Shown here one piece after another: positions 9,919 through 52,602 of a stretch of 64,000 nucleotides of DNA (within the stretch, counting starts at the first letter, position 1; each line of letters opens with the position of its first letter). This DNA is from Callorhinchus milii (lineage: Eukaryota), in NCBI RefSeq assembly GCF_018977255.1, contig NW_024704752.1:8804001-8868000 (forward strand), read 5' to 3'. Below the pieces are notes generated by a model. That model was not told where the DNA came from and did not search any database. It worked only from the letters and a program-made list of their open reading frames with translations. A program made the position numbers and the translations under genes.

Positions 9919-10123
9919 NNNNNNNNNNNNNNNNNNNNNNNNNNNNNNNNNNNNNNNNNNNNNNNNNNNNNNNNNNNNNNNNNNNNNNNNNNNNNNNNNN
10001 NNNNNNNNNNNNNNNNNNNNNNNNNNNNNNNNNNNNNNNNNNNNNNNNNNNNNNNNNNNNNNNNNNNNNNNNNNNNNNNNNNNNNNNNNNNNNNNNNNNN
10101 NNNNNNNNNNNNNNNNNNNNNNN
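9919..10123. other. Assembly gap (205 N)
   Basis: Run of n characters. Confidence 1.
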
Positions 10124-10307
10124 TTTTCAGAGAACTTTGTAAAGTGCTTCCCTGGTTGTTGTGGGGGGTTACTTCTTTTTTTTTTTGGGGGGGGGGGGGA
10201 GGATGGGGGAGGATGGGGGGGAGTAGAGAGATGAAATCTATCTTCTTCCCACTTTAAAGGAGGGGTTTCAGCTCTTCCATCCTAGTTCCTAATCTGCTCT
10301 TTCTCTG

Positions 10308-10422
10308 CACCCCAACACCCCCCCAACCCCGCACACCCCCCAACCCCGCACCCCCCCCGGGACACCCCGCACCCCCCCCGGGCCACCCCGCACCCCCCCC
10401 GGGCCACCCCGCACCCCCCACC
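10308..10422. repeat. Short C-rich tandem repeat (~21 bp unit CCCCGCACCCCCCCCGGGCCA) at the start of anosmin-like intron 1
   Basis: About 5 imperfect units; forms G-runs on the transcribed (-) strand right after the splice donor. Confidence 0.8.
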
Positions 10423-10432
10423 TGCCTCTTAC

Positions 10433-10591
10433 CTGCAGGTTTCTGAAGGAGCCGCTGAGCTGAGCGATGCGGAGCCCCAGACACCGTGAGGTGCACCGGG
10501 CTCGGGAGTAGCTGCCGGAGGAGGAGGAGGAGGAGGTGTCCGCCCACCCCGGGGAGCAGAGGAGCAACACGGGGAGTACCAGCAGCCGCAT
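10433..10591 (-). CDS. ANOS1: First coding exon of an anosmin-1 (KAL1)-like gene; downstream exons not located in this window
   Basis: ATG at 10591-10589, 53 codons: MRLLVLPVLLLCSPGWADTSSSSSSGSYSRARCTSRCLGLRIAQLSGSFRNLQ, then a phase-0 GTAAGA donor at 10432. Signal peptide plus a match to human anosmin-1 [30 protein letters not shown], whose exon 1 ends at the same position. May be a paralog rather than the 1:1 ortholog. Confidence 0.85.
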
Positions 10592-10654
10592 CCCACCCGC
10601 ACCTGCACTCCCTGTCACTGACTCCGGGGCAACACAGCGGCCAACAGCTGGTCC

Positions 10655-12105
10655 CCAGGCCCCGCCCACTGCAGCCAGGCCCCGCCCACTGCAACCAGGC
10701 CCCGCCCACTGCCACCAGGCCCCGCCCACTGCAACCAGGCCCCGCCCCACTGCAACCAGCCCCGCCCACTGTAACTAGGCCCCGCCCCACTGCAACCAGC
10801 CCCGCCCACTGCAACCAGGCCCCGCCCCACTGCAACCAGGCCCCGCCCACTGCACCCAGGCCCCGCCCCACTGCAACCAGGCCCCGCCCACTGCAACCAG
10901 GCCCCGCCCCACTGTAACCAGGCCCCGCCCACTGCAACCAGCCCCCGCCCACTGCATCCAGGCCCCGCCCACTGCAACTAGGCCCCGCCCACTGCAACCA
11001 GGCCCCGCCCATTGCAACCAGCCCCCCTGCCCACTGCAACCAGCCCCGCCCACTGCAACCAGCCCCGCCCACTGCAACCAGCCCCGCCCACTGCAACCAG
11101 GCCCCGCCCCACTGCAACCAGGCCCCGCCCACTGCAACCAGGCCCGCCCACTGCAACCAGGCCCCGCCCACTGCAACCAGCCCCGCCCACTGCAACCAGG
11201 CCCCGCCCCACTGCAACCAGGCCCCGCCCACTGCAAACAGTTCCGCCCACTGCCACCAGGCCCCGCCCACTGCAACCAGGCCCCGCCACTGCAACCAGCC
11301 CCGCCCACTGCAACCATCCCCTTCCGCCCACTGCAACCAGGCCCCGCCCACTGCAACCAGGCCCCGCCCACTGCAACCAGGCCCCGCCCACTGCAACCAG
11401 GCCCCGCCCCACTGCAACCAGCCCCGCCCACTGCAACCAACACCCCGCCCACTGCAACCCGCCCCCCACCCACTGCAACCAGCCCCCCGCCCACTGCAAC
11501 CAGCCCCCCCCGCCCACTGCAATGAGGCCCCGCCCACTGCAACCAGGCACCGCCCACTGCAACCAGCCCCCCGCCCACTGCGTCCACTGCAACCAGCCCC
11601 CCCGCCCACTGCAACCAGCCCCCCACCCACTGCAACCAGCTCTCCCGCCACTGCAACCAGCCCCGCCCACTGCAACCAGCCCCGCCCACTTCAACCAGCC
11701 CTCCACCCACTGCAACCAGATCCCATCCCACCCACTGCAACCAGCCCCCCCGTCCACTGCAACCAGCCCCCCCGCCACTGCAACCAGCCCCCCGCCACTG
11801 CAACCAGCCACGCCCACTGCAACCAGCTCCTGCCCACTGCAACCAGCCACCCCCGCTCACTGCAACCAGCCCCCCCGCCCAGTGCAACCAGCCCCCCGCC
11901 CACTGCAACCAGCCACCCCGCCCACTGCAACGAGCCCCCCCACCCACTGCAACCAGCTCCGTCCACTGCAACCAGCCCTGCCCACTGCAACCAGCCCCCC
12001 CGCCACTGCAACCAGCACCCCGCCACTGCAACCAGCCCCCACCCACTGCAACCAGCCCCACCCACTGCAACTAGCCCCGCCCACTGTAAACCGGGCCCTG
12101 CCCAT
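10655..12105. repeat. GC-rich minisatellite, ~19-23 bp unit GGCCCCGCCC(C)ACTGCAACCA, roughly 65-70 copies
   Basis: Directly visible tandem array; units are uniform at the 10.7-kb end and more degenerate toward 12.1 kb. Explains the long low-complexity ORFs on both strands. Confidence 0.97.
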
Positions 12106-15100
12106 TCTCCTCTATCTCTTTGTGGCTTTCTGGTTCCCCTCTAATGTCAGCATTTAAAGAGCTTGATTTGCCTCTGATGGAATGAATGGGAGGGATGGTG
12201 AGAAAAGAGGGAGAGGAAAAAGGCTCTTGGATTCATCCATCCCCTTTTCCTGCATGTATTTAAGCTGCTCTGGAAAGTAAACCTGGGTTCATGCTTCTGG
12301 ATAAGCCAAGGAGGGAAGAAAAGAGGGCAGAGGTTCAGCACTGGGAAGGGAAGTTTAGAACAGACACTGGAAGTATTTCTTTACACAAAATGCACAGTCT
12401 ATCCACTTTACAATATACTCTGTGAAGCGCTTTGAGGCGTCTCAACCGTGTGATAAAGCACTCTATCAAAAGCAAGGACTATTAGAAACAGTTGGAACAG
12501 GTTATCAGGAAGGGTGGCTAAAGCCAGGTCTCATTGAATAAAGAGTTTGATACTGTAATGGGAAGATGGAAGGGTAGGAAGGTTTTGATCCAATGGGCCA
12601 CAAGACCTACTTTATCCAACCCTCTTTCACAATTGCACAGAATTAGGGTAACAACCTATTACCAGACAGAGGGTGGCATGATCATGGCATGAGTTCCGAG
12701 CCTTCCTTCACTGAGGATGAAAATTCATTGAAATCTGTAACAGACACTGCTGATTCAGGTTATACGTATCAATGTCCTCTGGTGTTCACTTATGGTGATA
12801 CAGTGAACTCATGGAAAGGGAAATATAGTCTGAAGGTCTAGAAATGCGGTATTCACAAAAAATAAATCCTGCATTGTGGTCGACTAAGGTTAGCCTAATA
12901 AAATGTTATACTGTGTGTCTTCAGTCCATCAATCACAGTGTGGTCTGTGTCCACCCTGCAATGTCATCCATCAGATTGGACAGTACATCCTTCATGGACA
13001 AGGACACTGCCCAACAAATAGATTCCTGAAAATTTGTGGACATCAATTACAATTGATTGTAGCCCTTTTCTTTCCAGGATAGAGGAAAAACAGTTTCCAA
13101 ATTAACAATGAATTTAGTAATTTTCCAAAATTCTGAATGATCTCCTGCGCAATAGTGGGCACCACTGATTAAAGACCAATCAACCTGGTTCGTCAGCAGG
13201 ACTTGGAGATGCAGACTAGTCACTGGAGGCATAGATTCTTCCCACTCGGTTCCTGTTAACCCTGCAAGCCAAAGCCCTAATAGGTAAGGTAATCCAAGCT
13301 GGACAAGCAGCATGAAGTTTGCCACACAATGCTTTCAATGGCAAGCTATGTGATTTTAGCTGGTTAAATTCCAGCAGTACCAAACATACACATTCTGGGG
13401 TTACCAAGCTTTGGCTCTCGCCAACCTACACCTGATACTCTCAGGAATTGAGTCAGCAAGGTATGTCCCTCCAGGAAGTGAGTTTGTATTCCGTTCTAGA
13501 CCCACAGTCATTCCAATGTGTAAGTGACATACACACGTGGGACTCTTAGTCTGGTTTGGATACTCTTAAGGATCGTTTCTGCTTATGTCAAACTCCTGGC
13601 TGACAAAAACAAGAGGGGAATTGGCTAAACAATCAAAGAGAATCAGATAGATTGAAGATATGATCGTGCAGCATATTTTCAAGAATATAATTAGACACAT
13701 TGTGCATTCTGACAGGATCAGGCTCTTTGGATAAGAGGCATTAGGGTAAGACTGCTTCCCACTCCAACAATAATGAGGGCAATTCTGTGAAACTATGTTT
13801 CTGTTGCTTATCGCCATCTGTTGGTTCAAACACATAAAGACGCCACTGGGATCTGAAGGAGAATTGGTCGATTGGGAATACTTTTCATTCAGTAACAGAG
13901 TGAGATACTGTTATTGGGAATTTTATCTCAACCTTAATTATCAACAATTGTTTCCAATTTTTCATGCAAAAAAAAGCCTAAAAGTGCTTAATAGCAATAC
14001 TAACGTTGCATGTGATATACGCCTTATCAATTTATTGAGACGTGTAAAGTGGACTGACTGTGTATTTTTGGGGTGAAACAAGGAATAATAATAGCACAAA
14101 CAAGAATAAAGAGTAGATGTAGAGGTGACTGGAGGCATCGATGTAGAGTTTCTGGAAAGTATATGTAAGCAGGGGAGATGATTGAGGCAGAGAGAGTATT
14201 TTAGGAGGTTTTACAAGGGGATTTGGGAAATGGGGTCCAGACAAGCCAAGGGGTGCTCAGTGCTTACAAGTCTTTGATGAGTCAAAGTTCTGAGCAAGTC
14301 AGAAGGGACAAATTTATTATTCATTATACATTTCTTCACAAAAGGCAGAAGCCACCAACTTAACAGTTAGCCCTTATATGTATCTGACCCTGAAAATCTT
14401 CAAAGCCTTTAGATAACTTTAGAAATTTGCACCCAGACAGTTTATCAGTGTCTTTCATTCGTAGATGATGCTGTTAGCAAGAATAAATAAACAGGAGACA
14501 GGCTGACCAGGGATCTGATACTTCAACTCCATGGAGTTTTTTTTTAACTTTGACCCAAATTTCTCCCTTTCATGCTATACATGGTGACTCATTAACTGGC
14601 CAGTGTTCCATGGGCATTGCCTGCTCGCAGCACCATCCCCGAGACTGTGAGTGCCGGCAGGCTGGTCGACCACAGGAAAGCCTCGTCCTGTCCTCAATCA
14701 ACACACCTTTCCAGAAAGAAGTTGCTCCCTGTGATCACAATAATAATCCTAATAATCCTTGCATTTTATGTAGTGCCTTATCGCTTTGAGAGGCTTCACT
14801 ATTATTATTATCATGTCACTAAAGTGCCTCAAAGCGCTTCACAGAATATATTGTAAAGTGGATCGACTGTGTATTTTGTGGGCGAAAGTGTACTGACTGT
14901 GTGTTTTGTGGGAAAAACAAGGAACTTAAATCAAATGCCAGAAGTTCACACAGTGAAATACATCTTCAACACGTGCAGAAGTGGTATATGTGTTGGGGGG
15001 GCGGGGTGGGGGGAAGGGATCTGATTCTGGTGGTAGGTTAGGTTCCAGCTTTTCATCTCTGAAACCCGGCAGCCAATTACACACAGTAGTGACCAATTTT

Positions 15101-17880: not shown

Positions 17881-20874
17881 ATGAAGCTGCTTGGAGTGTT
17901 GGCCGTGTGCACTGTGCTGCTTATGCCTTGTGTTATGTCCCAGATACACGAAGCGATTCCCTGTGATTCCCAGGAGGTGGTGGCTCTGGCAGATCTGGCT
18001 GTCAACCACATCAATGAAGTTGAAAAGCAAGGATACAAATTCAGCCTGGACAGGATCGAAAACGTCCAGCAGTTGAAAAAGGTTAGTAAAAATTAAAACA
18101 TTTCTATCCCTCAGCTCTTCTTCCAGACCAATCTTAATAACAATAATAATCCTTCCATTTGATACAACGCCTTATCAAGCCTTTGTGATGTCTCAAAGCG
18201 CTTCACAGAATATATTGTAAAGTGAATTGACTGTATATCTTGCGAACTTTTGATATTGGTTATATTGATAATTTTTTTTAAAAAGCCAGATTGATGGATC
18301 AATAGGTTTGGAATAATTTGGTTGAATCTAACACACTGTAAAAACATGTCAGTCTTGAGGTTTTGATTGCACTGTGACCTCCTTGCCTCAATAATACTGC
18401 GAGAGAGAGAGAGTGCTTCTCCACAGGGACTCCACACTCCCTGTTACCCCGTTTCCCCACTATTTGCTCACGAAAGTACTGGCATTAACCCGTTCGATTT
18501 CCCCCTCAAGTAATGAATGTGCTGTCCTATGATGAGGTAATTTCATGAGCCTGCATAATGGGCCTTGCTTCTGCATCTCGCTTCTATCATTGAAAAAAAG
18601 CACCGAGTTCTGTAATGCATTTTGACATTCTGATCCTGAGAATGATCTTGCATTGAGTCCCAAGTAACCACTGCAAAATACAATCACTAGACTTTGCAGT
18701 AATTCATATGAAGCGCTTCGAGGCGTCCTCCCAGGAAAGGCGCTAGGTCAAATGCAGGGAATAAGATTTCTTTGAACTATTTCCTTTCAGGATGGTGGAG
18801 AAAACGTCTACTATATAGAAATTGATGTCCGTGAGACCAAGTGCCATATTCTGGACCCCAGGCCTCTCAGTGACTGTAAAATCCGTTCCTTCTTGGACAC
18901 CGTGAGTCTTATTACCTTCTCTCTCAACAATTCTTGTATTCCAGAATTCCCGTTAATATGTTGTCCAGAATTACTACTAAGTTAGGTTAGATTGCACAAA
19001 CGATAATCTTTGTGGTTATCGTTTGTGCAGTGTAACCTAACTGTTGTGGCCTTTGCACTGCATTGGTCAGCCCTAATCTAAGTTATTCTGCACATGTGCA
19101 ATTTATTTACTGTGACACTGAAAGTACTAATATTAAAACAATAACTTACCCAATATCAGGACAGTGTTACTGCTATAATATTAACCCAACCTCACTGGAG
19201 TCAAATAAAAAGCTCATCTTGAAGTAAAATTATACTTTTTAAAGTTATACATTGACCCATGACCCCACCATCCTCTTTTTCCTTCTATTTTGTCTTCATT
19301 ATTTTTCCTTTTTTAGGGGTTATTTTTCCTCTCACTGAGGTTCTCCAGGAATTTTCTTCTCTCTCTTCCATTTGACTCCTTTTTCTGATACTGCCATTAT
19401 TCACATTATCCATGGCGGAGAATTATAGCACATTATTTAACTTACTCAAGGTTACTACCTCAACCTTACTGGCTGGAATATAAGTGTCAGAATAGCTTGA
19501 ATGCTCCACTGCGTACAAAGCGATAAAGCCACCTTGGCTTGTCATCTTGTAACATAGTACACGTATTACGTATTTGTGACCTGGATTTTATATTCATTCC
19601 AGTTGAGAGGACAGAAGAAAGGCAAAGTTCCTCTGGGCCGCTCGAATGGGTTGCATAGATCTCTAGCATGTTTTGTGGGCAGATTCAAGCTTCCAAATCC
19701 GTTCCCTAAATCGCTTCTGACAGGATGATTTGATCTTCTGAAGTCAGTGGATGGTTAAACCTCTCATCTATATTGCCGTTCTGGCAGCAAATAGCTCTCG
19801 AAATAAGAGTTTCTATTTTAAATGCTGGGAAGGAAGAACAGCCGGAACATTTCTAATACAGTGCCATTCAGAAGTGATACAATGATGTATTGTGCTATTT
19901 GCTGCTTGGCAAACTAGATAAGATTTGCCAACTCATGGGATCAAATCCCCTCTAATTGTGGCTATAAGACTACTATCTGAATTGGTTTGGGGCCAGCCTC
20001 AAGTGAGAGTGGGCTCACAGCACAATATTTCCCTCCATTTGGCAATCTACTCAGAGGAACCACAGGATGAAATCAAAATATCCTATTGTTGCAATGCAGG
20101 GCTCTCTTCTGAGGTTTGTTTTGACGGAATAGAAAGGACGTTGTTCTAGACTAAACCGTGTTCCATTTGCTCTGTGAATGCTTGACGCTTTTGAATGGGC
20201 CTCTAAAATGGCAACATACTCCATTTCCCAGCACCAAAATCTCCACCCAAAAAAACTGATAAAGGTGACTTTGATTTGGACACAGATCATTAATCCTTTG
20301 CAGAGTGTATTTCTTTGTGCAGCTAACACATTCATCACACAAGGGCATCAATGAAAGGACTTAGTGTATTCAACATACTGACTATCCTTTGGATGCATGT
20401 CAAACCCAATCAAGTAACTCAAGGTTCTTCTTTCTCTCATTCTCATATTAGAAAGTCGAAGGAGATTGTAAGGTAATTGTAGTGACCAAGGCTGGAGCTC
20501 CAAGTTCCGTGGATGGTTATAGGTGTGAATTATCTCCAGGTATGTTCATTTTCTGCTTTGAACAACACTATATGGAGTCCTATAGCTCAGTGGTTAGAGC
20601 ACTCGCCTTGCAAGCGAGACACCTGGGCTCAATTCCAGGCAGGGCGAAACCTTGGGCAAGTTTCCTTACTCCACACAGAGCCTAATAATAATCCCTCCAA
20701 AAATAAAAAATAAATTGGTCATTTTCAATCCACGACTGTTTGTGGGACACTGCTTTGCGCAATTGGCTGCTGCATTTCGCCCACAAATATACGGTCAATT
20801 CACTTTACAGCATATTCTGTGAAGCGCTTTGAGACCTCTAGAAGACGTGAAAAAGTGCTATATCAAATGCAAGG

Positions 20875-20912
<38 letters not shown>

Positions 20913-23841
20913 CACAGCTTAGGCTAAAGGCTCAATGCCACTTTTAGTGATAGTCGTCATATTGGCTCAGTATCATTTGTTTAAGCTGAGAAACTTCGGT
21001 AAAGGAACAAGCACATACAAAGACAAGAAAGGGCACTGCCAAGGTTTAGTAGTATAGAAAAGAACTCTTTATATCTGTCAGTCTTCCCTTCCTTGCACAA
21101 TCATAGCTTTATAAACTCCAGTCTAATTTCACCAAAGCTGTTTTACTACTACTTTAGTCAACACGTACCTCTTTTGCTCCTCACAGATAGTATAGTCCAG
21201 TATTCTCCTCTTCTTCCAGGTACTATCATTGTGTTAAATTATAGATTCAGTGAAAAGAAATTAAAAGTAAAAATGTGCAGGAGATTGAATCAGATACTGA
21301 GAGAGCAAGATAGGTTAATGTTCTGGGTGTGACTCTGACTCTTTATCAGAATCATATCGTCTAGCAGTCCTTATACAGCAGGCCAAGCTCTGGTGGTTTC
21401 AAATAGTTGCAGGGAGTTGTATGGAATTTTAGATTAAACACTACTCTTTCACCTGAGGGACATGAATTCAAATCCCAAAAATGATAAAAAAAAGAGTCCA
21501 GTGTGAAATGTGTTTGGGACAGTCCCTGCAGTTGAGAGTAGGGTGGAAAGTGGGATTAGTTATCTCAGGAGATACCAGGGTTTGAACTTGGAACCTCGAG
21601 TCAGTTGCGCAGTAGGTTTACTGACTGAGCCATTGAAGGAGTCTAATGGTTTTATTAATGTTTGCATGCACTGTTGTGTTACAGATTCAGCTGAAGATGT
21701 TATCGAGAAATGTCCTAACTGTCCGACTCTATTACTTCCAAACGACACTGGAGTCCTATACGCTGTGAATGTCTCATTGCACAAATTTAACCATGTGAGC
21801 AATCACATGCACAAGTTTCAACTTCGTGATATAACACGAGCTTCTGGCAAGGTACATCTCTTCATTCCTAGATCGCACCTGAAGACCTTCCTCTTCGACC
21901 ATGCCACCAGTCACCTCCGCTCTCTCCCTGGCTCTCCGCAAGCTACGCTATTGTTAAGTGCTCAGAGATGCTATCCCATGTGAAGGGCGCTAAATAAATC
22001 GTTCTTGTTCATAAATTATTTTCACTCTGTCAAAGATTCTGAGGATGTTTTTGAGCAGGAAAAGGCCATCAGGCCAACAAGCTTTATTTTTTTTTATCTG
22101 AACCCCCATCTATCAGCCTTCTAACCATATTATCATTCTATTCACTCTCTTGAAATGCATCTAATTGCCTCTTGAACCCACAATTCTGTCACTGAGGTAA
22201 GGCATAAAATCAGATACTTCAGTGGTTACAACAATATTTAATTTGATTCTGTTTCAGGGAGTTGGGAGTCCAGTGATGGTGGAGTTCAGTATCCAGGAGA
22301 CTCCATGTAGGAAAGCCTCACCTCTATGTTCCCTGATTGCCTTGATTTCTCCAGTGAGTATTGTAAACACAGTATCCATAGAAAAAATAATGGAGTGAGT
22401 TGCAAATTGTAATCTGATTGAGATTCAGATAGTTTATATATAGATTAATGGATTCCTGGGAATGAGTTAAAGACAGGAATCCAATCAAGTGGTTCAGATG
22501 GTCAATATATAGAATAATGGATTGCTGGGCGTGAGTTAAAGGGATCTGGTAGCTAGTCACATGATTCAGATGGTCAAAGTATAGAATAATAAATCACTAG
22601 TAGAGATTGGAATCTAGTTAAAGGGTTTAGAAAGCTTTGTGAGGCTAGGGGTGACTGGAACCCTCTCTCCTGCAGGGAGGGGGTAACTTGTGCTGGGATA
22701 AAGTTCCTCAATTGGCCAGTTTCACTGTGAGACTCGGCAGCAAGTGATGTTGGTTGGGGTGAGGGGGGGCGGTGGTTGTCGATACAGATAGAACAAGAAT
22801 GGCGGTTGGGAACACACCACCCAAAACTGAAAACGTATGATATCTCCTAGTTCTTTTACCTCTCTTCTCTCGTTATGTAGCAAAACGGTTTCTGTGCAGC
22901 GACTGTCACTCCAGCTGGTGCTACTGCCCCTGAAATAGTGGATGTGACTTGTGAGTTATACTCAACCAAGGTAAGTGATGTAGCATGGGACCATTAGTTA
23001 TCAAGTGGAGTCCTATTGTGGTACAGCTAATATTTCTCTTACCTCAGCCTCTAATCTCTCTCTCCATCATAATATTCCTTCTCTTTACTTTACTGATATT
23101 CGTGCTCCTCTGAATATAACGCTTTTTCTTCCCATATTTCAAATAATACCATATTCTGCCTATTCTTTCTCCTGCACATTTACTGCACTGAAATTCTGAC
23201 TTACTGACCCTTCACCAACTGCAACTCATTCTTCCCCAGAACCTCAAGACCGTGGAATTCTTCACTACTCACGTTCTTAATAATAACAATAATCCTTGCA
23301 TTTGATGCAGTGCCTTATCACGTCATTGAGACATCTCAAAGCGCTTCATACTATATCGTAGAGTGAATTGACAGTATATTTCCTTTCCTGCTACAGTTTG
23401 CAAGCTTTCCTACTTGCGCACGTCTTCACCTACACACTATATGTTTGATTTATCTAACCTCTCTTATGTTAATCTTGAACCACGGTAATTTTGAATTACA
23501 ATGTGCTTATGTTTTGAATATTGCAGGTTGCCCCCGACAGTAGTACAGCACCACTGGAAGGTGAGAGTGGCACTGTGGCATCACCAGAGGCCGCCACCGT
23601 AGCAGTTGTTGAAAATAATCCCACGGCAGCATCAGAAGTTGCTATTTCTCCAGGAATAATGATTCCTCCTAAACGCAAGCGAGCAGTTCAGGAATCCTCT
23701 GAATCCTCTGAAGAACTGTTGATTGGCACTGGTCAAGCAGGAGCTGGCTCTGAAGTACTACTCAAACTTAGCAGATTCCCTGATCTCCCCGCGCATCTTA
23801 CATCCTGCCCAGGAGTGCGCAGGCACCCCGAGCATCTGTGA
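17881..23841 (+). CDS. AHSG: Fetuin-A / alpha-2-HS-glycoprotein-like, 7 coding exons, 355 aa (gene 1)
   Basis: Exons 17881-18081, 18791-18901, 20452-20539, 21685-21851, 22258-22353, 22881-22970, 23527-23841; all AG/GT bounded, joined frame open (1068 nt). Signal peptide, IPCDS, YYIEIDVRETKCHILDPRPLSDC (human FEIEIDTLETTCHVLDPTPVARC), VEGDC, DSAEDVIEKCPNCP, C-terminal CPGVRRH (human CPGRIRH). AATAAA at 24018 and 24035. Confidence 0.9.
20574..20908 (+). mobile_element. tRNA-derived SINE subfamily A, full length
   Basis: GGAGTCCTATAGCTCAGTGGTTAGAGC (A box)...CTCAATTCC (B-box-like), Deu-like core, long (ATT)n tail; inserted 35 bp after gene 1 exon 3. Confidence 0.9.
21870..22010 (+). mobile_element. 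L2 LINE 3' end fragment
   Basis: Encodes SHLKTFLFDHA (L2 ORF2 terminus), followed by GTGAAGGGCGCTAAATAAAT tail. Confidence 0.65.
22422..22625. repeat. Degenerate ~70-bp tandem triplication in gene 1 intron 5
   Basis: G(A/G)TTCAGAT..TATAGA.TAAT...AGTTAAAG recurs, with units starting near 22422, 22491 and 22563. Confidence 0.7.
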
Positions 23842-27741: not shown

Positions 27742-30700
27742 ATGAAACTGCTCTCTGTGTTGGTACTTGGCACGCAGATCTTTCACTGCCTTTCTGCAGT
27801 GGCTCAAGGCCAACAGCCCTCCTACAGAGCACTCTCTTGCAACGCTTTGAGGGTAGTGGCTGCAGCAGATCTGGCAGTTGAGCAAATGAATGCTGAGCGA
27901 TCAGGAGGTTACAAGTATATCCTCAACAAGATCGAAAACGCTCAGGAGAAGAGGGGGGTGAGTAGCACTACAACAACAACTTGCATTTATACAGCGCCGT
28001 TCACTTACGATAACATTTCAGAGTACTTCACAGAAGTAGGGTTGGATGCTGAGCTAGGAGCAAGGTGGCCAAAAGCACGGTTGGAGAGGTAGGTTTTAAG
28101 CAACAGGGCATTACTCTGATACTTGTGGAACGTTACGTTATTTGGGGAATCACCACAAGGGAAAGTTACATTCAATTTTGTAACAACTGGACAAACAAGT
28201 TGCAAAACATCAATAAATCAAAGCAGGATCTATAAGCGGTTGCTTTCTGATTAGTGACTGTTGCTTTCACAACAATTCAGCTTTTAGCTCATTGAAACGT
28301 TAGGTGAAGAGGTCCAGTGAAGCATATCACCACTGATAAAAAGAGTGGCAGAGAAATAGAAGTCAAGAAGTTATATGATACCAAGCTTGGCTTTCAAAAG
28401 CTAGTAGTTGCAGGAGGATTTGAAGACTGCAGCAGGTGAAGACTTCTCCAGTTTAATGTTCCATAAAAGAGGAAAGTAAAGCAATATATTACCAGAATAT
28501 GAATTATTGAGCAGAATAGGATGGTCTAAGTCTCTGGGGTGGATCACAGCGCCTTATCACCTCTTCGAGACATCTCAAAGCGCTGCACAGAATATACTGT
28601 AAAGTGAATCTTCCTTTTCCTTTCAGAAAGGCGGGTCATCCTCCTTGTTCTTAGAATTTGAGGTGCTGGAGACTCGGTGCCACTCACTGAATCCCAAACC
28701 TGCATCGGAATGCCAAATCAGGTCGGGCCGTGAAGCTGTAAGTCTCCTCCGTGTCACCTTGCCTGGAAATTCTCACTTTAATACAGCTTAGAATTATTGC
28801 AAACCTATGTCAGTGAAGAGTGCAGCTCAATGCAGACACGTTACTATATGACTAAGTTCACGCTCAAAACAGAGCCACCACAATCAATTGAGTTTTGGGC
28901 TTAGAAATAATATGCTTTTTTATCCACCGATTCTGGGAAGCACAGGAGGGGTACATAACTTACTGCGGGTTAGTTTTTATATAATTGTACAATATCCTGC
29001 TGGTACAAATCTGATCTAACAATTTCCTCACACGTGTATTGAAATGTTCGCTCAATTCCATCTTCATAATAATAATATTACTTACATTTGATATAGGGCC
29101 TTATCACGTCATTGAAACGTTTCAATGCGCTTCATAGAATATAATGTAAAGTGGAGTGACTGTGGGCAAAAAACGGCAGCCAAATGTACACAGCATTTTT
29201 TTAAAAAAAGAGAATATTACACCTGGAAAGCGATCCGCCAATCAACTAACTACCAGATTGCTACTTACTGCTAGGTAAACAGAGGCATGTGGAGTAAGGA
29301 AACTTGATTAGGGTTTCGCCCTCTCCGGGAAACCAACCCAGGTCCTCTGCCTCTCTTATATGTGAATCTGTGTCTCTTATTTCAGAATTCTGGGGACTGC
29401 AAAGTGAAATTGCAGATGAATTCAACAAGAAAGGTTCATGTTCAGAGCTACAGGTGCTTAATCTCCCCAGGTAGGCCAGTATTCTGTATATATAATTAGC
29501 ACAATAGGCAAGAGTTATGATAAAGAACACCAGGAGACTAACTCCCTAGTTTGGTGATGTCAAGACTAGAGCGACTTTCTATGCTTTAAGTGTATTACCT
29601 TATTAAGTGGATTGCCATTCAATCTGCTCCTCTGTCCTCAGCACACGTCTCTCGATTGTAATTCTTTAGTGCATCTCCCACTCTGTTTCTATATATTTTC
29701 TTTCTCCCCACCTCTGATCCTTCAGCGTGGTTTTATACTTTTATTTACAAAACTGTACTTTCTGAATAAGTTTTTTTAATATGCAGTAATATCCTGTTTT
29801 TGTTGTCAAGTGATTGAGGGGGACAAAGAGCTTCGGTCAGGCTATTACTTTTGATGTGTAAAGGCTGAGAGCTCAAATGGCCTCCAACAGAATATACTTT
29901 CTGCGTGTGCTTTTTTCAAGATTCGGATGATATGATTTTAAGAAGATGTCCAGGCTGCCCCTATCGAATACCTTTGAACAACACAGACGCCACACATTCT
30001 GTCATGATCGCATTGCAAAAATATAACAGGAAAAGCAACAGGACAAACTATTTTGCCTTGCATGAAATAACAAAAGCTTCCTCTCAGGTATGTCTTAAAC
30101 TGAACATAAACTTCATAGAAAATAGTTTAACAGAATTTTGTTCCTCTTATTTTCCGACACCTGTGAGCAATTGACCTTACACAGACTCCTTGATGCTCAA
30201 TTCCTAAATGCTTTGAACTGAATGACCCATTCAGATTTCAGATCTGATGCTGTGATTTGTACTATTTTACCTTACCTTAGTTGGATAATGGTAGGAATGT
30301 TACAAGCGAGCTTGATTATGCAAAGCATTATGTGTGATTTTATTTCAGATTGTTGCTGGGAAAAATGTATTTGTTGAATTTGCGATCCAAGAGACTGCAT
30401 GCAGTAAAGCTTCCCAGCGTCCAGACTGTCAGGCAGGGTTGGGAGCATTGAAGTCTACTGTAAGTGTGGAAATTTTGGATCAATGGGAACAATATGAAAG
30501 GGTATGGGAAATTGAGATTGGAGGAGGTAATTCCAGTGGGGTAACTAGCACCAGCACAGGCTCAATGGGTTGATTTTTTGATCCAGTGTTTGCAATTTCT
30601 ATCCAAGATGCAAACTTGCAATATCTTCTTCCCTGACCCACACTGGCTTCGATCAATTGAGGTTATTTTGCACAAAATTGTTCTTATTTAACAGAACATC

Positions 30701-32095
30701 TCAAAAAAACGAGGGTGATCCTTTCACAAATGATACATCAGATTTGGTTACTGAATAGTTCCCAATCAGCATCGCATTCCTACCATGCAATTCCGTGTTT
30801 GTAATGTCTCCATCTATATTAACCAAAGAAACCCACAGAGGCAGCAACTATCATTCAAAGATATTCCGGGTAGAGAGCTATTTTCTTTGCTCTGATTTGA
30901 CCTCTGCCTTTCTTTCTGTCCAGCACACGGGCTTGTGTACCGCCTCTGTCTATATGCCCATTTTTGGGAAAGAGAAGATTGAAGTGAACTGTGAACTCTA
31001 TGAACCGCAGGTAACATATCACTTTTAGACCCAAATGTTTTTAACTTTCAAGAACTATTTCATTGGCAGAACTTGCACCATTGCTTCTCAGAATTTTTTT
31101 TCTGAGCTCCAAATATCATGTTCCACATACTCTTACTTACGTCTCACCTGCTGAAAATAAAACTCATCGCATTCAACAACAACTTGCATTTACATAAGCC
31201 CTTCACGCATGATAGCGGCTCAGAGCGCATTCATTTGTTTACGACCCTCTAGATTCTGGGTTCCCCAAATGGTTTAGTGGTTAAAGGTGCCACCTGCCAT
31301 AGCACTAAAATATCTGGACCAGAAGATCAGAAGAAGATTTGAATGCTGCTTTGTGCTGAATGAGCTGGTCTCGGTTGCGGCAGCAGTTAAGATGTCAAAC
31401 GTGGTGTTAACACAGCGTTGCTTGTCGTTATGCTTGCCCAGTGTCCTTACTGAAATGTTCTTTGAGGAGATAATGAGATTCAGCACTGACACACTCCTCA
31501 GTCGAACAGCCTGCCAACACTGACATAACAAATTAGCCACTTGGAGAACTAACCAGCAGTCGTCAGCACTTTCATGAGAGAGAAAGGAAAGAAAATTGGC
31601 AAAGAGAGACCTTTGAAACCCCTCACTTTGCAGTCTATGTTTCCATATATTACACACGGTATCATAAAACCTCACCTTGGAGCCTTCTAATCACCGCTGG
31701 TGTCCTGCAAACCTAACTCTCATTTTGTTAAAATCCATGAAGATGTTGACATGGTCTTTCTAATACCGTAGGTGGTGGCCAATACAAGGAAGAGTGTGAA
31801 TAAAGGAGGGATCAAGAGAGGTCGTGCTAAAGAAAAGGGACGTGTCTCAAGGAGCAGGCGGCAATCACCTTCACATAAAGGCCAGCCACATGTCAAGAAG
31901 CAGCCAAGTGGCAGAGCTGCAACTACAAGGAGAATTGAATCATCCGAGGAGGTTCAAGGGTCTTTTGGCTTTGTTATCGGTACTGGAGGTACAAATGGGA
32001 ACTCCCAATCTCAAACATTCCCAATACTGCCCCCGCCTCGAACAGCCTGCCCAGGGAGGGCCCGTTACACTAGACCAGGCTTCCAGCCTATCTGA
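27742..32095 (+). CDS. Fetuin-A-like paralog with basic C-terminal region, 7 coding exons, 366 aa (gene 2)
   Basis: Exons 27742-27957, 28627-28737, 29386-29470, 29921-30087, 30349-30459, 30924-31010, 31772-32095; open frame (1101 nt). Signal peptide, two cystatin domains (FEVLETRCHSLNPKPASEC; CPGCP; Q|IVAG), terminal CPGRARY. AATAAA near 32272 and 32293. Confidence 0.88.
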
Positions 32096-35109: not shown

Positions 35110-37459
35110 ATGAATCTGTTAGCTGTGTTTCTGACCTGTGCTCAGCTTGTTAATCCTCATGTTCTTGCTTATCGACAACTCAGTATTTTTGGAGCAATTC
35201 CTTGTGATGCAGTGGGAGCAGTGACAGCTGCTGACCTGTTCGATTGGTCACATTAACAGTGCTCGAAGGGAAGGGTATAGTACAGTCTGAACAGAGTCAA
35301 CAATGCCCAAGAAAAACAGGTGAGTTGAAGACTCGGGTTCATGTTAAGAAATCACAATAAAAACTCTTTACCCAACTTGTATTGAAGTGGGGTCCAATTC
35401 TGATTCATTTAAAATTTACAGTTGAAAGTGCTCCTTTGGTGTTCAGACATATCTTAATAATAATAATTTAGTCACTCAATTTGTGGGACACTGCTGTGCA
35501 CAATTGGCTGCCGCGATTCTCCACAAATATACAGTCGCTTCACTTTACAGTATATTCTGTGAAGCGTTTTGAGACGTCGAGAAGACGTTAAAAGCGCTAT
35601 ATAAAATACAAGGATTATTATTACTATTATTATGCTTGGTGGTAAATTAAGTGAGCAACGACAACAACAAAAGTACATTTGTACAGTGCCTTTCATGTCG
35701 GGAGGACGTCCCAAGGCGCTGGACAGATAGAGTTTCGGACAGCCTCACTAACGCATAACACAAAGCCATATGAATGAAGAAGACTTGACACAGAGTATCG
35801 TTGAGAAGTTAAGATGAACTGTTGCCTGCAACAAACTGTAACAAACTGTGCCATGTTCCACAGGTCTCGAAATGGCTTGCAGTATAACTAAATGTACATG
35901 ATTACAGTAGAACATTGTAAAGTAACGGTTTATGTCTTTCCACTTGCTTTGCAGTAGCACAAATATTTATTAATTAACCCATTAATCGTATCTGAGTAAA
36001 ATACTGAGTAAGTATCTGCTTTAGGGAGAGTACTACAGGATTATAGGGATAAATGCAGAATAAGATGACTAAATACTCTTTGGTACAGTGAACTGCAATG
36101 GCGTAGTATCAGATGCCTACCATGAGAGGAAGAGTAAAGCATTCATTCAAGCCCAGTTACAGTACCATGGGTTACTCCATTTTAATTGATTTGGCAATGT
36201 CCAGAGCGGAAATTCACAAGAGAAGTTCGGATGAGGAAGAGCCTTCATCCAATTTGATCTCATCCTTACAGAATACTTACCCTGTTGTCCTCCCATTATA
36301 AGCATCTTGATAGGACTGCTTTAATCTCCGACTGCCAACAGCTTCAGGGCAAGGAATATCTCCCTGGAGTGGATAGTTTTAATAATTTTAACGCGTGAAA
36401 TACGGCAGTGGAACAGAAATAGTGTTAGTTCTGTCATATTAACTCTAAGCTATAGAAACACAATATTTTGCAAACATCAATCATATTACAGCAACAAAGT
36501 ATCTCCTGATGCATGCATGAGTTAAAGTTATTGCTGTATTATTGGTAAATATTTCTTATCATGAGCTGAAATCTTCAAACAAAAATAATAAGCAGAGTTC
36601 CCTGTAGCGCCTCAAGGGTTAATTGCTCAAAAGGTGTGAAAGTGTAGAGAAATTAAATTTAGAATTTGCCCACAAAAATGTAATCAAATCACTTCATAGT
36701 ATACTCGGTGAAGCTCTTTCAGACGTCTCGAAGACGTGATGAGGGGCTATGTCAAATGCAAGGATTATTATTATTGATTATATATCATAATTAATTTTGA
36801 GATTTCATATTTAATACAATATACACACTTATATTCTTCTTTTACAGCTTCTAGGTTCTGTGAGGCTTCTCTCAAATCTGTGGGTCTTGATGAAATCATT
36901 GACGTAACCTGTGAGATATGCAACAAAGGTTAGTGCAAATTTTTCTTTCTGCTCATTCAATCCTCTAAACTGGGAGGAATCCCAGTTCTTAAATATTCAT
37001 TCTTGATTTGTCCTAACACTGTTTCACTTTCCTCTAACCTTCAGTGCCACTGTTCTCCCTTTCCACATCGCCTGCTGTGTGCTATTCTTTCTTACCCTTT
37101 TGCTAGATTTGATTTTGTGTTACATTCGGTCACAGAGGGTGACAGCCAAAGGATTAAGTGGCCAAATGGATTATGAATACAATAATCTGGGCCAAAGGCA
37201 GATGTTTATGGCAAAGAGGAAGAGATCAGTTTCAGGCTCTGAATTCCGAAAGCCAAGGAGGCCCAGAAAAGAGGACACATCATCATCATCATCATCATCG
37301 GAATCTTCAGAAGAAGACGGTGACATGAGGTCCAGTAACACATTATCGCAGTTTCCCAAATCTTCGTCCACACGCTCTAACCTGCCCAGAGCAGTGAGTT
37401 TGAATGAGAGAGAGATTATATCCATACAACACCAATCAACTACCAACACACAATGCTGA
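35110..37459 (+). pseudogene. Fetuin-A-like pseudogene retaining only exons 1, 6 and 7 (gene 3)
   Basis: Exon 1 35110-35319 (MNLLAVFLTCAQL..AIPCDA..AADL / SIGHINSARREGY / YSLNRVNNAQEKQ|gtgagt) has +1 (~35239) and -1 (~35279) shifts, with TAA at 35254 and TAG at 35278 in the ATG frame. Exon-6-like 36848-36928 (FCEASLKSVGLDEIIDVTCEI) is out of frame with its acceptor. Exon 7 starts at 37136 (KRKRS...SSSSSSSESSEE...FPK) with the terminal CP shifted out of frame. No exon 2-5 remnants seen in 35320-36847. Confidence 0.8.
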
Positions 37460-39312: not shown

Positions 39313-42300
39313 ATGAAGGCTCTTCTAGTATTTGTGGTTTGGGCTCAGCTGTCCAGTTCACGGGCTGAGCCCTCTCCTCAGCCCATTGCTCCTTTACTCT
39401 TGGATTCCACTAATTGCAACGACTCTAATACAATAAAGGTGTCAGGTTTGGCTCTGCAGGAAATCAATAGAAACCGCAGGGAAGGTTATATCTACAACCT
39501 GGTCAGCATCAGGAGCGCTCTGAAACAGTCTCAGGTGAATGAACATCATCTTGAATGCTGTATACAAGCAGGTTGAGAATGCTCTTTCACTAGTGGTTTC
39601 TCCGATCATTTTCATAATGTGCATTATGACTAACAAACTGTATTAGAAAATAGATCTGTAGATTGTTTCTCGTAAGTTTCAGAGGGATTGACAAGTTGAT
39701 CTATATCGGCAGAGGATGTTTGACAGCGATCCAGTTTTGTGAATGTTAAACACCCATTGGAACGAGGAAGAGATTTCACTTTGATGTTTAAAATTAATTA
39801 ATTAAATAATTAAATATCATTCGATGCACAATCAGCTGGCGCAGTTGCTGGTGGTAATCGAGAGACACGATGGTGATGCAAGTTATATTGTCAGGACAGT
39901 GGTTCTGGTCAGCAGACCCTCTTTTTCTTTTGCCCATCAGCCATCCAGATGACAATTGGCCATTCACTTCTTAAACTGCAAGGATTATTATTAATTATTA
40001 TTATTTTTATTGATAGCGTATTGATTGATAAGATGTTTTTGTGTTTTACCGTGTGTCGTGACTGTGATTTGCAGGGTAATGCAGGCATGGTGTATTATCT
40101 GACTCTTGGTGTTGATGAAACGGAATGTCACGTGCTGAGTAGGAAAGACTGGAGATCATGTGAGAGTAGGATGTTCCATCAATCGGTAAGTGTGAATTTC
40201 TCAATTCAGAAAGATCTAAGAAGACGCTAGAGGCAAAACCCAGAACAGACTGCGAATCTGAGTCCCTACAAACACTTAGACTCATAGGTAGTAATGATGG
40301 TAATGATAGGCATCTTAATATTTACTACGTGGGCTACAAAAGATTCAAATTTATCTGATGGAAAAGGCACCTGCTTTATTATTGTTTTGCTTTCCCATTG
40401 TAATAAAAGTTTCTTTAAATAAAGTACTTAAAGGGCAACTGTCTCAGTGATTTGCACCAGGTATAATACGTTTTAACGCTGTAATTTGATAGAGGATCAG
40501 ATTAAAAGAACTCACACAATTGCTATACTCCTTCCAAATTTCTCCTCCCCTCCATCTCGTCTGAAAATTGCTGACACCTGTTTGGACATGGCTCCAGGGT
40601 TGGCAAATATCTGGCAATACCTCAAATAAATGGCTCATTCCTTTCATAAAAAATGGAGCTTGATAGGACCTACAAAAGGATAATTATAAAATTTAAATCA
40701 ATCTGACACCAATGTTCACTGACTACAGAATTCATTGATGCTCTGAGGAGCTTGTCAGTATCATTTATAATTTTGTGTGAATTACAGGGAAAATTTGTCC
40801 AACATATTGTAATGAATTTACTTTTAGAGTTCTAAAATCAGTCCCTTGTTGGTTTAATGGAATACTTGATACTGATATGAATCTCACTGTATTGTGTTCT
40901 GTTTGCGCAAGGTTGCAGGTGAATGTAACGCAACATTACACATCAACAATCTAGAAAGGATTGTCTGCTTGCATGACTACAACTGTTCCTTAACCTCAGG
41001 TGAAGTAGATTTAATATGTAAAACTTCAAATGAAATGTTAAACTGAGGCCCCATCTGCCTGTACAGGTGGATATTAAAGATCCAATGGTGCCATTCAAAA
41101 AGGGAAGAGAGTTTACCCCCATTCAGGAGAACTTCTCCTGGTCAATAATTTCCCAAATAAAATTAGTCATTTGCTTCACGGCTGTTTGTGAGACATTGCT
41201 GTGCACAAAATTGACTGCCGCATTTGGCTTCAAAACACAAAGGCATTACACTTTACAGTATATCCTGTGAAGCGCTTTGGGACATCCTCCCAATGTGAAA
41301 AGGTTTCTTTTTGGTTTGCTTCTACTCACTGCAGTCTCCTCCAAAGGTTGCTCAGCTCACTGGAGAAAAAGTGAATCGCACAACAGGAGGTGAGGAGATT
41401 CTCCTGAATTCACATCACTCCTTGTGCAGAAGCAGCGAGTTTGTGATTGTGTGTGGCCACGATCAGTGATACAGGCACACAGATTGGGATCACACATGTG
41501 GCAAATACACCCTGTGGGACAGCAGTGTAGTGAGTTTTTAATGGGCTATTTAAGTATCTGTCTGTCTCCACTTCTTACAGCTTTCTGGGGCAGAGCATTC
41601 CACATCTTCACAAACCTCTCCGTGAAGAGATGCTCGCTCTCTGACCACAGTTCTAACGCATTCCTAGAACCCTAAAACGATATGTTTGTGTTGCAGCTGA
41701 TCGACGCACCGTGAGTGAAATATGTCCAGATTGTCCGATAGATCGTGATGATAAGGAGAATGAATCATCAATCAACAGTGCTAACAAGGCTCTTACAAAT
41801 TACAACCAAAATAGTAACAATACCAAATATTTCAACCTTCTCAATGTCACCAAGTATTCATTTCAGGTGAGCTACTTTACTTTTGTAATCAGATCGTACA
41901 ATATTCCTTGTTTATTTTTGCCAGATGGACCAGGATACAGAACACATTTTTTAAAAAAAGCTTTAGTGATGGGAGGACGGTAAGATGGGTATTCTGGAGG
42001 ATGAGATCAAATGAGCTGAAGGACTGTTTTCATCCTAACTACTCTTGCGATCTTGTGATTATTAAGATGCATCACAACTGAGCCCATTCCTTGGCTGATA
42101 AGAGGTAATCGGATACCTATCAAGAATGGGAGTCTTAGTTCATTTTTATCCTCCATACTCCAGGGCAAACATTACCTTGTATGCCCTTGTACGTCCAGCT
42201 CCATTAATCTAGTAATGTTTCCTTGTATTAAAGGCCATCCTGTTTTTCTTATGTTTCAGGGAATGTTTTTTGAAGCACATTTTGTGGAATTTACCATCGT

Positions 42301-43848
42301 GGAGACGGCGTGTTCAAAGAAACAGACTGTCAAAAACCTTTCAAAGTGCAAACCTTTAGCCCCTGGTGTTGCTGTACGTAATTATTGGGACTCTTCACTC
42401 TCAATGCAATTAAAAATCCTAAACAGTACAGTATCTAATTTGAAAGTGTGGGAAATGGTGCAATAGAGCTGCTCATCAAAGTTTATGTCTGAGGTACATA
42501 TGTTGTTGCTGGAGGGAACTCTATTTAACATCTAAAGTATGCTGTATCTGACCCTGACCTGGGAATGAAGAATGCTGGCCCCAGGTTAACATTCGTTGTA
42601 TTCCTCAACACTATTATCCCACATCTGAATAAGTACAGCATTTGCCCTCACAATAATTAGTTGCTTACAGAGATTTAATTACCAGTCTCCGAATGTGATG
42701 TTTTCCATTATTTGTAGCAATTTGGTTTCTGCAAAGCCTCAGTACAAATCGTCAACATGAAAGATGGTACAACTGTGACATGTGAGCTCTATCAGCCAGA
42801 GGTGAGCAAATACTTTTGTTATACTCTTTATTCAATCAGTTTATTTAGAGATCGCTCTTCTTGCTAAAAGTATAAGCTTAGCATTATAATTATTTTAGAT
42901 TCTTTTGAAATATATTTTCAATTTTTTTCCCCTTACAATTTGGCTTCCCCCCGCTCCTAAAGGATTTTATTTATACTGGGAAGGTTTCACGTTACTCGGC
43001 TTCTGGTGCATTGCCTAAGTGGTTCTTCATAAGAAATGTTAGATGGTGGGTGTTACAGGCTATTTGACCTTATGGCTAGTAAAGTTGCCGTGTGACACTT
43101 CACCAAAAAAGCCCCAAGCTTCTTCCCTGGCTTTTGCTGAATGAACTGATTTCAGGGGTTTTTACTGGGCTAAGGAGAGGAAAATGACTCAGGATACATA
43201 CTCTTGAGTGCTGTCCAGTGACCCCTGCTGAAAAATCATGTGTGGAATATCAAGACATTGAATGAGACCAAGATCAAGCTCGGTGATGATGCCCTTGTTG
43301 TTGAATAATTTGCCAGCACTTCTGGTCAGGGCACTCATCAAAATGGGCAGATGAGTGAGGCTATGGATGGTTCTGGTAACCATGGAACTTCACCACACCA
43401 TGTGTCAGACCCACAGGTGAAAATGTGTAGTGAGGATACAGAAATTGAATGACCATCTACTTGATCGCAGCCTGGATTACTCTTATATTAACAGTTTGTC
43501 TGTTCAGTTTCTACTGTTGAACAGGCGAACAATTTTACCTGTCATTTACAAATCCCTTGAGCAATGGGCTGTTTGTATTTTTGGTTTGCACCGCTATGTG
43601 GAATCTTTTCTGCTTTACAGGAATACAGGGACCTGAATCATCCTGATCATTGTCGTAATCAAGCCCTTATAGAACAATTACCTAGAGATCCGAGAGCGAT
43701 GAGAAAAGGCCAAACTTCAGGAATGCCAACCTTTATGCAAATGAATGAAACTGCAGAAAACCTTGTTGTGCTTCCATATTTTCCTTTGAAGCGATCTTCC
43801 TCAAGTTCTTGCCCATATTCTGTAGGAGGGACTAATTCTATCCGGTGA
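39313..43848 (+). CDS. FETUB: Fetuin-B-like, 7 coding exons, 338 aa (gene 4)
   Basis: Exons 39313-39534, 40075-40185, 40912-40999, 41697-41866, 42260-42373, 42718-42801, 43621-43848; open frame (1017 nt). CNDS..ALQEINRNRREGY, YYLTLGVDETECHVLSRKDWRSC, GECNATLHINN..YNC and CPDCP all align with human fetuin-B. AATAAA at 44139. Confidence 0.88.
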
Positions 43849-51900: not shown

Positions 51901-52602
51901 GGCTGTGAATTAAGATTGTATTTAAGAATTTGCTAACTTCTGGACATTGAAATGCTAAGAAAATACAGTAAAGTTAGACTCAGGTGGAATTCCTCCTCCT
52001 AGGTTAGTTGTAATGCTCATCTCTCTACTCCTAACATTGCTTTTCTACTTCACTAATCATTTTGTGACCGATTGCACCTATTTTTGCTCGATAGTCCCTT
52101 GCCCATTCTACAACTGTTTGCTTTGAGATTTGATTTATAATTTAATTTGTCTAACAGAATTTTAAATGGGATAAACTTGGGAATAAAATAAAATGTTTTC
52201 CTCTTACTCTGTTTCAAGATGGAAGGATTCAGAAGCCAACCGACTGAGACCATTGGGATTTTGGCTCAGCAACGACAAAGACATAGGCAGCATCACTTTT
52301 ACCAACAGCAGGATTCCCATGAACAGCATCTGATAAACAAATCTGAGCAATCAAATCCAGCAGTCATTACAACTTCCGCTCCTCTGGAATTACCCCTTTC
52401 TGCAATAGATCAGCTTGCAGACCTTCTAGGACCAGAACCTCCTGTCAACTGCCCAGGAAAACCATGGAAGCCTTTGAGGCACATAACACCAACCGACCCT
52501 GTAAGTGAAACTGTTCCTCCTCCACTAAACACAGCTGAAGAGGGGGAACAACCCAAATCAGATGGCTTTTTCTTTGATTTTGACTTACTGGCTGGTTTGT
52601 AA
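45969..52602 (+). CDS. KNG1: Kininogen with two cystatin domains, 7 coding exons, 391 aa (gene 5)
   Basis: Exons 45969-46181, 48273-48383, 49317-49404, 50310-50485, 50797-50910, 51670-51759, 52219-52602; open frame (1176 nt). [25 protein letters not shown]|VVAG, His/Gln patch, CPGKPWK and terminal FDLLAGL (human HK CPGRPWK...YYFDLTDGLS). Confidence 0.88.

Follow-up and report, generated by a model that had tools for sequence, protein, structure and literature searches.

In human fetuin-A, a cut at mature Arg322 yields two chains that are joined by one disulfide, and the FAM20C sites Ser325, 328 and 330 lie ahead of the cut, in the connecting peptide (PMC9340150). FAM20C phosphorylates the protein in vitro (PMC7865524), the main tail site is phosphorylated in only ~20% of plasma fetuin-A (PMC7865524, PMC9340150), and calcium phosphate is preferentially bound by phosphorylated fetuin-A (PMC9544022). 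Domain 1 is described as the key mineral-binding region in mammals, with a modulating influence postulated for the phosphorylated tail (PMC12092497); the effect of fetuin-A phosphorylation on calcification is called unknown by the authors of PMC7865524.

Other proteins with S-x-E sites have been described in cartilaginous fish. These fish have an expanded, S-x-E-rich spp2 expressed in mineralising chondrocytes, and elephant shark spp2.3 has 13-21 S-x-E motifs (PMC13188829); one region of Sparc-L in elephant shark contains 26 predicted sites, and an scpp gene of their own occurs in sharks and rays (PMC9122587). SPP2/Spp24 of cartilaginous fish resembles the genes described here in its cystatin-like domain followed by an S-x-E-rich tail and in its proposed mineral role, but differs in having one cystatin domain, many more S-x-E motifs and expression in mineralising chondrocytes, and the accessible sections of the source describe no two-chain tether. 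The SCPP family (caseins, osteopontin, elasmobranch scpp) shares the FAM20C S-x-E sites, but it derives from sparc-L exons and is defined by gene structure and synteny (PMC9122587), whereas the genes here have the cystatin fold. As for fetuins themselves, zebrafish is described in one paper as having three fetuin-like transcripts. The open-licence literature, which leaves most subscription papers outside, yielded no protein-level description of a cartilaginous-fish fetuin, no record in shark fetuins of the tail motif described below and no name for the third paralogue. The main text of a nurse shark plasma proteome does not mention fetuin, and its supplementary table may hold fetuin peptides; the 8 supplementary files of a catshark cartilage paper, which are not necessarily full expression tables, have no fetuin/AHSG entry.

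The window, that is, the whole stretch of 64,000 nucleotides of Callorhinchus milii DNA that was analysed, contains a fetuin-A gene (gene 1) with the following features:

17881..23841, plus strand: gene 1, fetuin-A/AHSG, 355 aa, 7 exons, an open spliced model
17881-18081, 18791-18901, 20452-20539, 21685-21851, 22258-22353, 22881-22970 and 23527-23841, plus strand: exons of gene 1
17962..17964, plus strand: Cys28, invariant in 51/51 aligned fetuins and predicted to be the heavy-chain cysteine of the tether disulfide
21687..21695, plus strand: linker S135-A-E, predicted FAM20C site
23671..23682, plus strand: KRKR (residues 300-303), predicted site for a proprotein convertase, P4 being Lys
23692..23715, plus strand: ESSESSEE, with four predicted FAM20C serines (308, 309, 311, 312)
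23776..23811, plus strand: FPDLP...CP segment with Cys345, predicted light-chain tether

The gene 1 protein is a 100% match to Callorhinchus milii XP_007897321.2 and NP_001279349.1, named AHSG in RefSeq, and 5/6 of its joints were listed in contigs of 4/4 runs guessed to be RNA, the sixth being covered by contig pieces. Two Pfam Cystatin stretches give tandem cystatin domains followed by a C-terminal region, as in type-3 cystatins, and fetuin-B is the best PDB match both by sequence and by fold. In the AlphaFold model the two cystatin domains are confident, pLDDT is 42-63 at residues 251-330 and below 50 over residues 306-323, and it is 88-97 over residues 331-350; we infer from these pLDDT values, rather than from coordinates, that the motif is exposed and the FPDLP-to-Cys end docked. 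The whole protein contains six S-x-E (signal peptide judged by eye), four of them in the cluster, and the spacer AVQ lies between KRKR and ESSESSEE. With its predicted sites, the gene 1 sequence follows the pattern of FAM20C substrates, which is S-x-E/pS in a secreted protein (PMC8348777). Judged by position, the S135 linker site is likely the equivalent of human Ser138, and Cys28 would pair with Cys345 as Cys14 does with Cys340 in the human protein (mature numbering; both listed in PMC9340150).

A tandem repeat with a 69-base unit in 2.4 copies occupies 22422-22590 of the window, in gene 1 intron 5. One contig of run X5 has an in-frame 3-base insertion at window position 23681, giving an extra Ala between KRKR and the cluster, and 3 base changes in the last exon and 3' end of gene 1, representing an allele or a related population. 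P0001 (UniRef K4G0H2), which stands for gene 1 as representative of its UniRef cluster, shows six differences, of which three are Ser to Phe and two are inside the serine cluster. RNA editing of the cluster was considered and rejected, as the Phe at three serines in P0001 is absent in four other records of the species; no such change is listed in the contigs either. The differences in P0001 are likely clone errors that hide the motif.

Two more fetuin-type copies are found on the same strand:

27742..32095, plus strand: gene 2, a fetuin paralogue of 366 aa in 7 exons
27742-27957, 28627-28737, 29386-29470, 29921-30087, 30349-30459, 30924-31010 and 31772-32095, plus strand: exons of gene 2
31850..31861, plus strand: strict furin-type site RSRR of gene 2, with RNKR at the matching place in zebra shark P0022
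31928..31951, plus strand: second dibasic RR of gene 2 (31928-31933), then IESSEE (31934-31951)
35110..37459, plus strand: gene 3, truncated pseudogene, with exon 1 (35110-35319), exon 6 (about 36848-36928) and the last exon
37214..37318, plus strand: remnant tail of gene 3, with KRKR (37214-37225) and, after a gap of 18 codons, seven Ser and ESSEED (37280-37318)

All 6/6 joints of gene 2 were found in contigs of run X3 (guessed RNA). Zebra shark P0022 is 60% identical to it and has KR-IESSEE at the place of RR-IESSEE. The gene 2 RSRR stands 26 residues ahead of a cluster that has only 2 predicted phosphoserines. The tail ahead of this cluster (31772-31933) is strongly basic with two predicted cut sites, the zebra shark layout being alike, and the predicted cuts would free a cationic peptide of ~24 residues. 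In gene 3, exon 1 carries frameshifts and stops, exons 2-5 did not turn up when looked for, and the serine cluster does not share a frame with the tether Cys-Pro (near 37383-37388); the absence of gene 3 among the spliced joints listed, beyond which there are 423 more, is no evidence either way. Intact gene 3 orthologues in rays (P0046, P0169-P0171), the best matches to gene 3 among five queries, have the same basic-then-cluster tail.

The motifs of genes 1, 2 and 3 were found at the places given in the preliminary description, and each is in frame within the final exon of a fetuin-type gene with 7 exons or, for gene 3, of what is left of one. The claim that a furin site followed by a phospho-cluster is common to all three tails holds for the presence of the motifs, but not for their integrity in gene 3, where the cluster is out of frame with the tether Cys. 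Nor does the name furin site apply throughout: the strict furin consensus is R-x-K/R-R, to which RSRR of gene 2 conforms, whereas KRKR of genes 1 and 3 is convertase-type rather than strict furin because of the Lys at P4. A basic P4 of either kind aids other convertases (PMC8401130).

Conservation was evaluated in an alignment of 13 non-redundant cartilaginous-fish orthologues of gene 1 (12 named species and one further record), and the tail counts exclude two sequences that lack the tail, a truncated model from white shark and an incomplete bowfin protein. The KRKR columns match in 13, 12, 13 and 13 of 13 orthologues and the SSESSEE columns in 13, 13, 12, 13, 13, 13 and 13 of 13, and the mean identity of the tail flanks to gene 1 is 0.28 upstream of the cluster and 0.18 downstream. 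The residue after the Lys-Arg pair is small (Ser or Ala) in 13/13, and FPDLP and CP are likewise identical in every orthologue (13/13). When the tails were shuffled 100,000 times each, a dibasic pair ≤12 residues before SSEE appeared at a frequency of 0.0007 for gene 1 and 0.00035 for gene 2, for patterns that were picked after the motif was seen and with gene 3 failing the 12-residue rule. Conservation is, at the level of sequence, stronger evidence than the shuffles for a real feature, and the aligned tails confirm the motif as a real, near-invariant part of the cartilaginous-fish fetuin-A tail.

Two trees, one quick and one careful, were built on the cystatin domains, and both recover bony AHSG, a paralogue clade (si:ch211-262h13.5) and three shark groups, but not their order. 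Gene 1 is sister to AHSG in the quick tree (SH-aLRT 82), and the careful tree joins genes 1-3 with bony AHSG at 82/95, unstarred and with no resolution inside; the paralogue clade is supported at 95 and 92/94, respectively. The placement of genes 2 and 3 differs between the trees: the quick tree puts ray orthologues of gene 3 beside the paralogue clade and fetuin-B, the careful one puts gene 3 with AHSG, and the AU test does not reject gene 3 joined to the paralogue clade (p = 0.19). The linker SPDSAED is common to gene 1 and AHSG. Where fetuin-B is described with the hallmarks CPDCP and QWVxGP (PMC6400186), gene 1 has CPNCP and gene 2 CPGCP, neither with QWVxGP. Genes 1-3 have the cystatin fold and fall within the fetuin/kininogen-like cluster, and the SCPP characters looked for (sparc-L 5' exons, exon structure, synteny and lack of a folded C-terminal domain) were not found in them, so the genes are fetuins, not SCPPs.

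The survey of the motif across fish fetuins that the preliminary description had suggested was carried out with 305 proteins (304 retrieved and the gene 2 model), which were sorted by clade profile and filtered for full cystatin domains, ≤520 residues and a terminal Cys-Pro, leaving 224. Among gene-1-type records the cluster is present in 17/17 (five being Callorhinchus milii), with [K/R]-x-[K/R]-R ≤12 residues before it in 17/17 and strict R-x-K/R-R in 0/17; gene-2-type records have the strict form in 2/2. Bony AHSG tails carry a cluster of at least two S-x-E sites in 22/24 cases, and the dibasic pair comes after the cluster in 18/22 and ≤12 residues before it in 0/22. In the paralogue clade, whose rows are not independent because they are mostly teleosts, SSEE is present in 128/129 tails, a strict furin-type site follows it in 121/129, and a dibasic pair lies just before it in 8/129 (four crocodilian, two gar, one coelacanth and one teleost). 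Fetuin-B tails have SSEE in 0/30, and a further group of five rows, which we take to be HRG-like, all have SSEE without a basic site. These counts indicate that the cluster is a general feature of jawed-vertebrate fetuins and not specific to sharks, and that the position of the basic site varies; the tail module is likely old in these proteins. What looks new is the order, since the predicted cut comes before the cluster in cartilaginous fish (17/17) and after it in bony AHSG (18/22), and a cut before the cluster would place the phosphates on the light chain.

The paralogue clade comprises P0027, P0028, P0031, P0033, P0186 and P0188-P0300 from gar, teleosts, coelacanth, caecilian and crocodilians, with no mammal or bird among its named rows. 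Its records are labelled AHSG or fetuin-B at random, si:ch211-262h13.5 being the UniRef label, and in gar the paralogue adjoins fetuin-B (fused model P0172). The clade resembles the shark proteins in its SSEE cluster, FP...CPG ending and near-neutral domain 1, and also, in crocodilians, coelacanth and gar, in basic residues ahead of the cluster, but it forms its own clade and in teleosts the strict furin site stands after the cluster.

With somewhat more confidence than doubt, we favour the reading that the shark tail serves as its counterpart in mammalian fetuin-A does after cleavage and phosphorylation, but with cut and cluster in the opposite order. A convertase of the Golgi would cleave the chain behind KRKR, and FAM20C would phosphorylate the four cluster serines. 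The resulting plasma protein would have two chains, and its light chain, once phosphorylated, likely aids in binding calcium-phosphate clusters; with the predicted cut ahead of the cluster, the phosphates would remain attached to domain 1. Phosphorylation of the cluster is highly probable, cleavage of the chain is probable, and a contribution of the tail to mineral binding is slightly favoured. Several points weigh against this reading: Lys at P4 deviates from the strict furin consensus, mineral binding in mammals depends chiefly on domain 1, the main tail site is phosphorylated in a minority of plasma fetuin-A, fish fetuins can be metalloprotease inhibitors that do without the tail, and genes 2 and 3 shift in position between the trees. 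Liver secretion, cleavage, the interchain disulfide, phosphorylation and mineral chaperoning would each follow the human protein, with which gene 1 shares seven exons, two cystatin domains, the linker S-x-E, the tail S-x-E cluster, the basic cut site and the Cys tether; it differs in that the human phosphosites precede the cut in a trimmable connecting peptide, leaving a 27-residue light chain with none listed. The shark tail is likely a re-ordered form of the known two-chain phosphorylated tail of human fetuin-A. The disulfide-tethered light chain opening with FAM20C sites, as proposed in the preliminary description, stands as a prediction, on the basis that Cys345-Pro346, like Cys28, is invariant in the 51 aligned fetuins, that the motif falls in a modelled disordered stretch and that the human protein undergoes such processing (PMC9340150). 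The predicted light chain would be 52 residues long in Callorhinchus milii and 43-44 in six sharks and rays, with 23-33 residues from the last predicted phosphoserine to the tether Cys.

Domain 1 of the shark protein is far less acidic than that of bony AHSG: by a crude residue count, made without a surface map and giving one evolutionary contrast, net acidity is +4 in gene 1 and +0.9 on average in 13 cartilaginous fish (range -1 to 4), compared to a mean of +6.5 in 22 bony AHSG (range 1 to 11; human not in the set). The paralogue clade is at +0.2, fetuin-B at 0.0 and gene 2 at -5 (net basic). A Mann-Whitney p of 6e-6 for this charge was set aside, as it reflects one contrast between two related groups. 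The acidic EID strand that had been cited for mineral binding is indeed present in domain 1 of gene 1, but the lower acidity of shark domain 1 weakens the argument drawn from it, and the strand is not diagnostic because acid-x-acid also occurs at that position in the paralogue clade. A near-neutral domain 1 could mean weak mineral binding overall. The same charge difference prompts a speculative and rather unlikely reading, that the ancestral jawed-vertebrate fetuin had its mineral-binding charge in the phosphoserine cluster and not in domain 1, that cartilaginous fish keep this arrangement, in which a light chain bearing four phosphates is linked through the disulfide to a near-neutral domain 1 and FAM20C and a convertase switch chaperoning on, and that the acidic domain 1 came later in bony AHSG while the paralogue keeps the old design. 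Shark fetuin-A, with its cluster on the predicted light chain and its near-neutral domain 1, amounts to a natural swap; if phosphorylation alone makes it a mineral chaperone, this would isolate the tail's share and place the origin of the acidic domain 1 in bony vertebrates.

The SSEE stretch resembles the clusters of caseins, and additional fetuin paralogues that carry the cluster lie at the locus, both of which agree with the idea that fetuins stand in for a missing SCPP family in cartilaginous-fish skeletal mineralisation, as does the lack of scpp genes in elephant shark (PMC9122587). We regard this substitution, which the preliminary description had proposed, as quite improbable, since bony vertebrates with SCPPs keep the cluster in the AHSG and paralogue tails counted above, and elasmobranchs, which have scpp and an expanded spp2, do not differ in the motif from elephant shark, which lacks scpp. 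Sparc-L and spp2.3 have far more S-x-E sites than the 4 of the gene 1 cluster, and one of the three copies, gene 3, is dead in Callorhinchus milii. A role as SCPP substitute is not supported, as sharks keep the cluster alongside scpp, spp2 and Sparc-L. Even a chaperone function that depends on tail phosphorylation would leave the view of shark skeletal mineralisation as it is, with spp2, scpp and Sparc-L as better candidates. A rather unlikely alternative, though less so than the substitution, makes the cluster a switch on processing or clearance, with phosphorylation gating the convertase cut as FAM20C gates furin cleavage of FGF23 (PMC8348777) and BMP4 (PMC12122004). In sharks the cluster begins only 4-5 residues after the basic site, the two are co-conserved, and the abundant Thr, Ser and Pro of the upstream tail likely mark an O-glycosylation region, all of which suit such a switch. 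FGF23 and BMP4 likewise link a FAM20C site to a convertase site, but through a single regulatory serine, whereas fetuin tails have a cluster; moreover, the spacer varies in length and the cluster is kept with the basic site well downstream in 121/129 paralogue and 18/22 AHSG tails, showing that fixed proximity is not needed.

There is also a small chance that these proteins are mainly astacin/meprin-type protease inhibitors or carriers, with a tail for non-mineral binding or turnover, given that carp fetuin, nearer fetuin-A in sequence, inhibits nephrosin and meprins (PMC6400186, PMC6346019), that several shark orthologues have CPDCP or a near form and that domain 1 is near neutral as in fetuin-B. 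CPNCP of gene 1 and CPGCP of gene 2 lack the zinc-blocking Asp, however, as both proteins lack the QWVxGP hairpin, and inhibition by carp fetuin is described as having no need of the tail (PMC6400186, PMC6346019), which leaves the tail conservation unexplained. Least probable of all, the chain would stay uncut and KRKR would be a positive patch pairing with the adjacent phosphoserines or binding polyanions. Lys at P4 in 17/17 gene-1-type records, never Arg, is odd for an optimised furin site and speaks for this, but the strict consensus is present in gene 2 and in 121/129 of the bony paralogue clade, human fetuin-A is cut in this region (PMC9340150), and in every aligned orthologue a small residue comes after the Lys-Arg pair.

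Elsewhere in the window, a fetuin-B gene at 39316-43848 (matching P0120) has a serine run before the terminal Cys, without an S-x-E cluster or a basic site. Two more cystatin-domain genes, at 45969-52602 and 53693-60463, have CPG-x-PWKP tails and no SSEE in their last exons; they are presumably kininogen-like. On the minus strand, a signal-peptide exon at about 10510-10670, which we take to resemble anosmin-1, adjoins a tandem repeat rich in GC (about 10250-12150), and 9919-10123, also beside this exon, consists of N.
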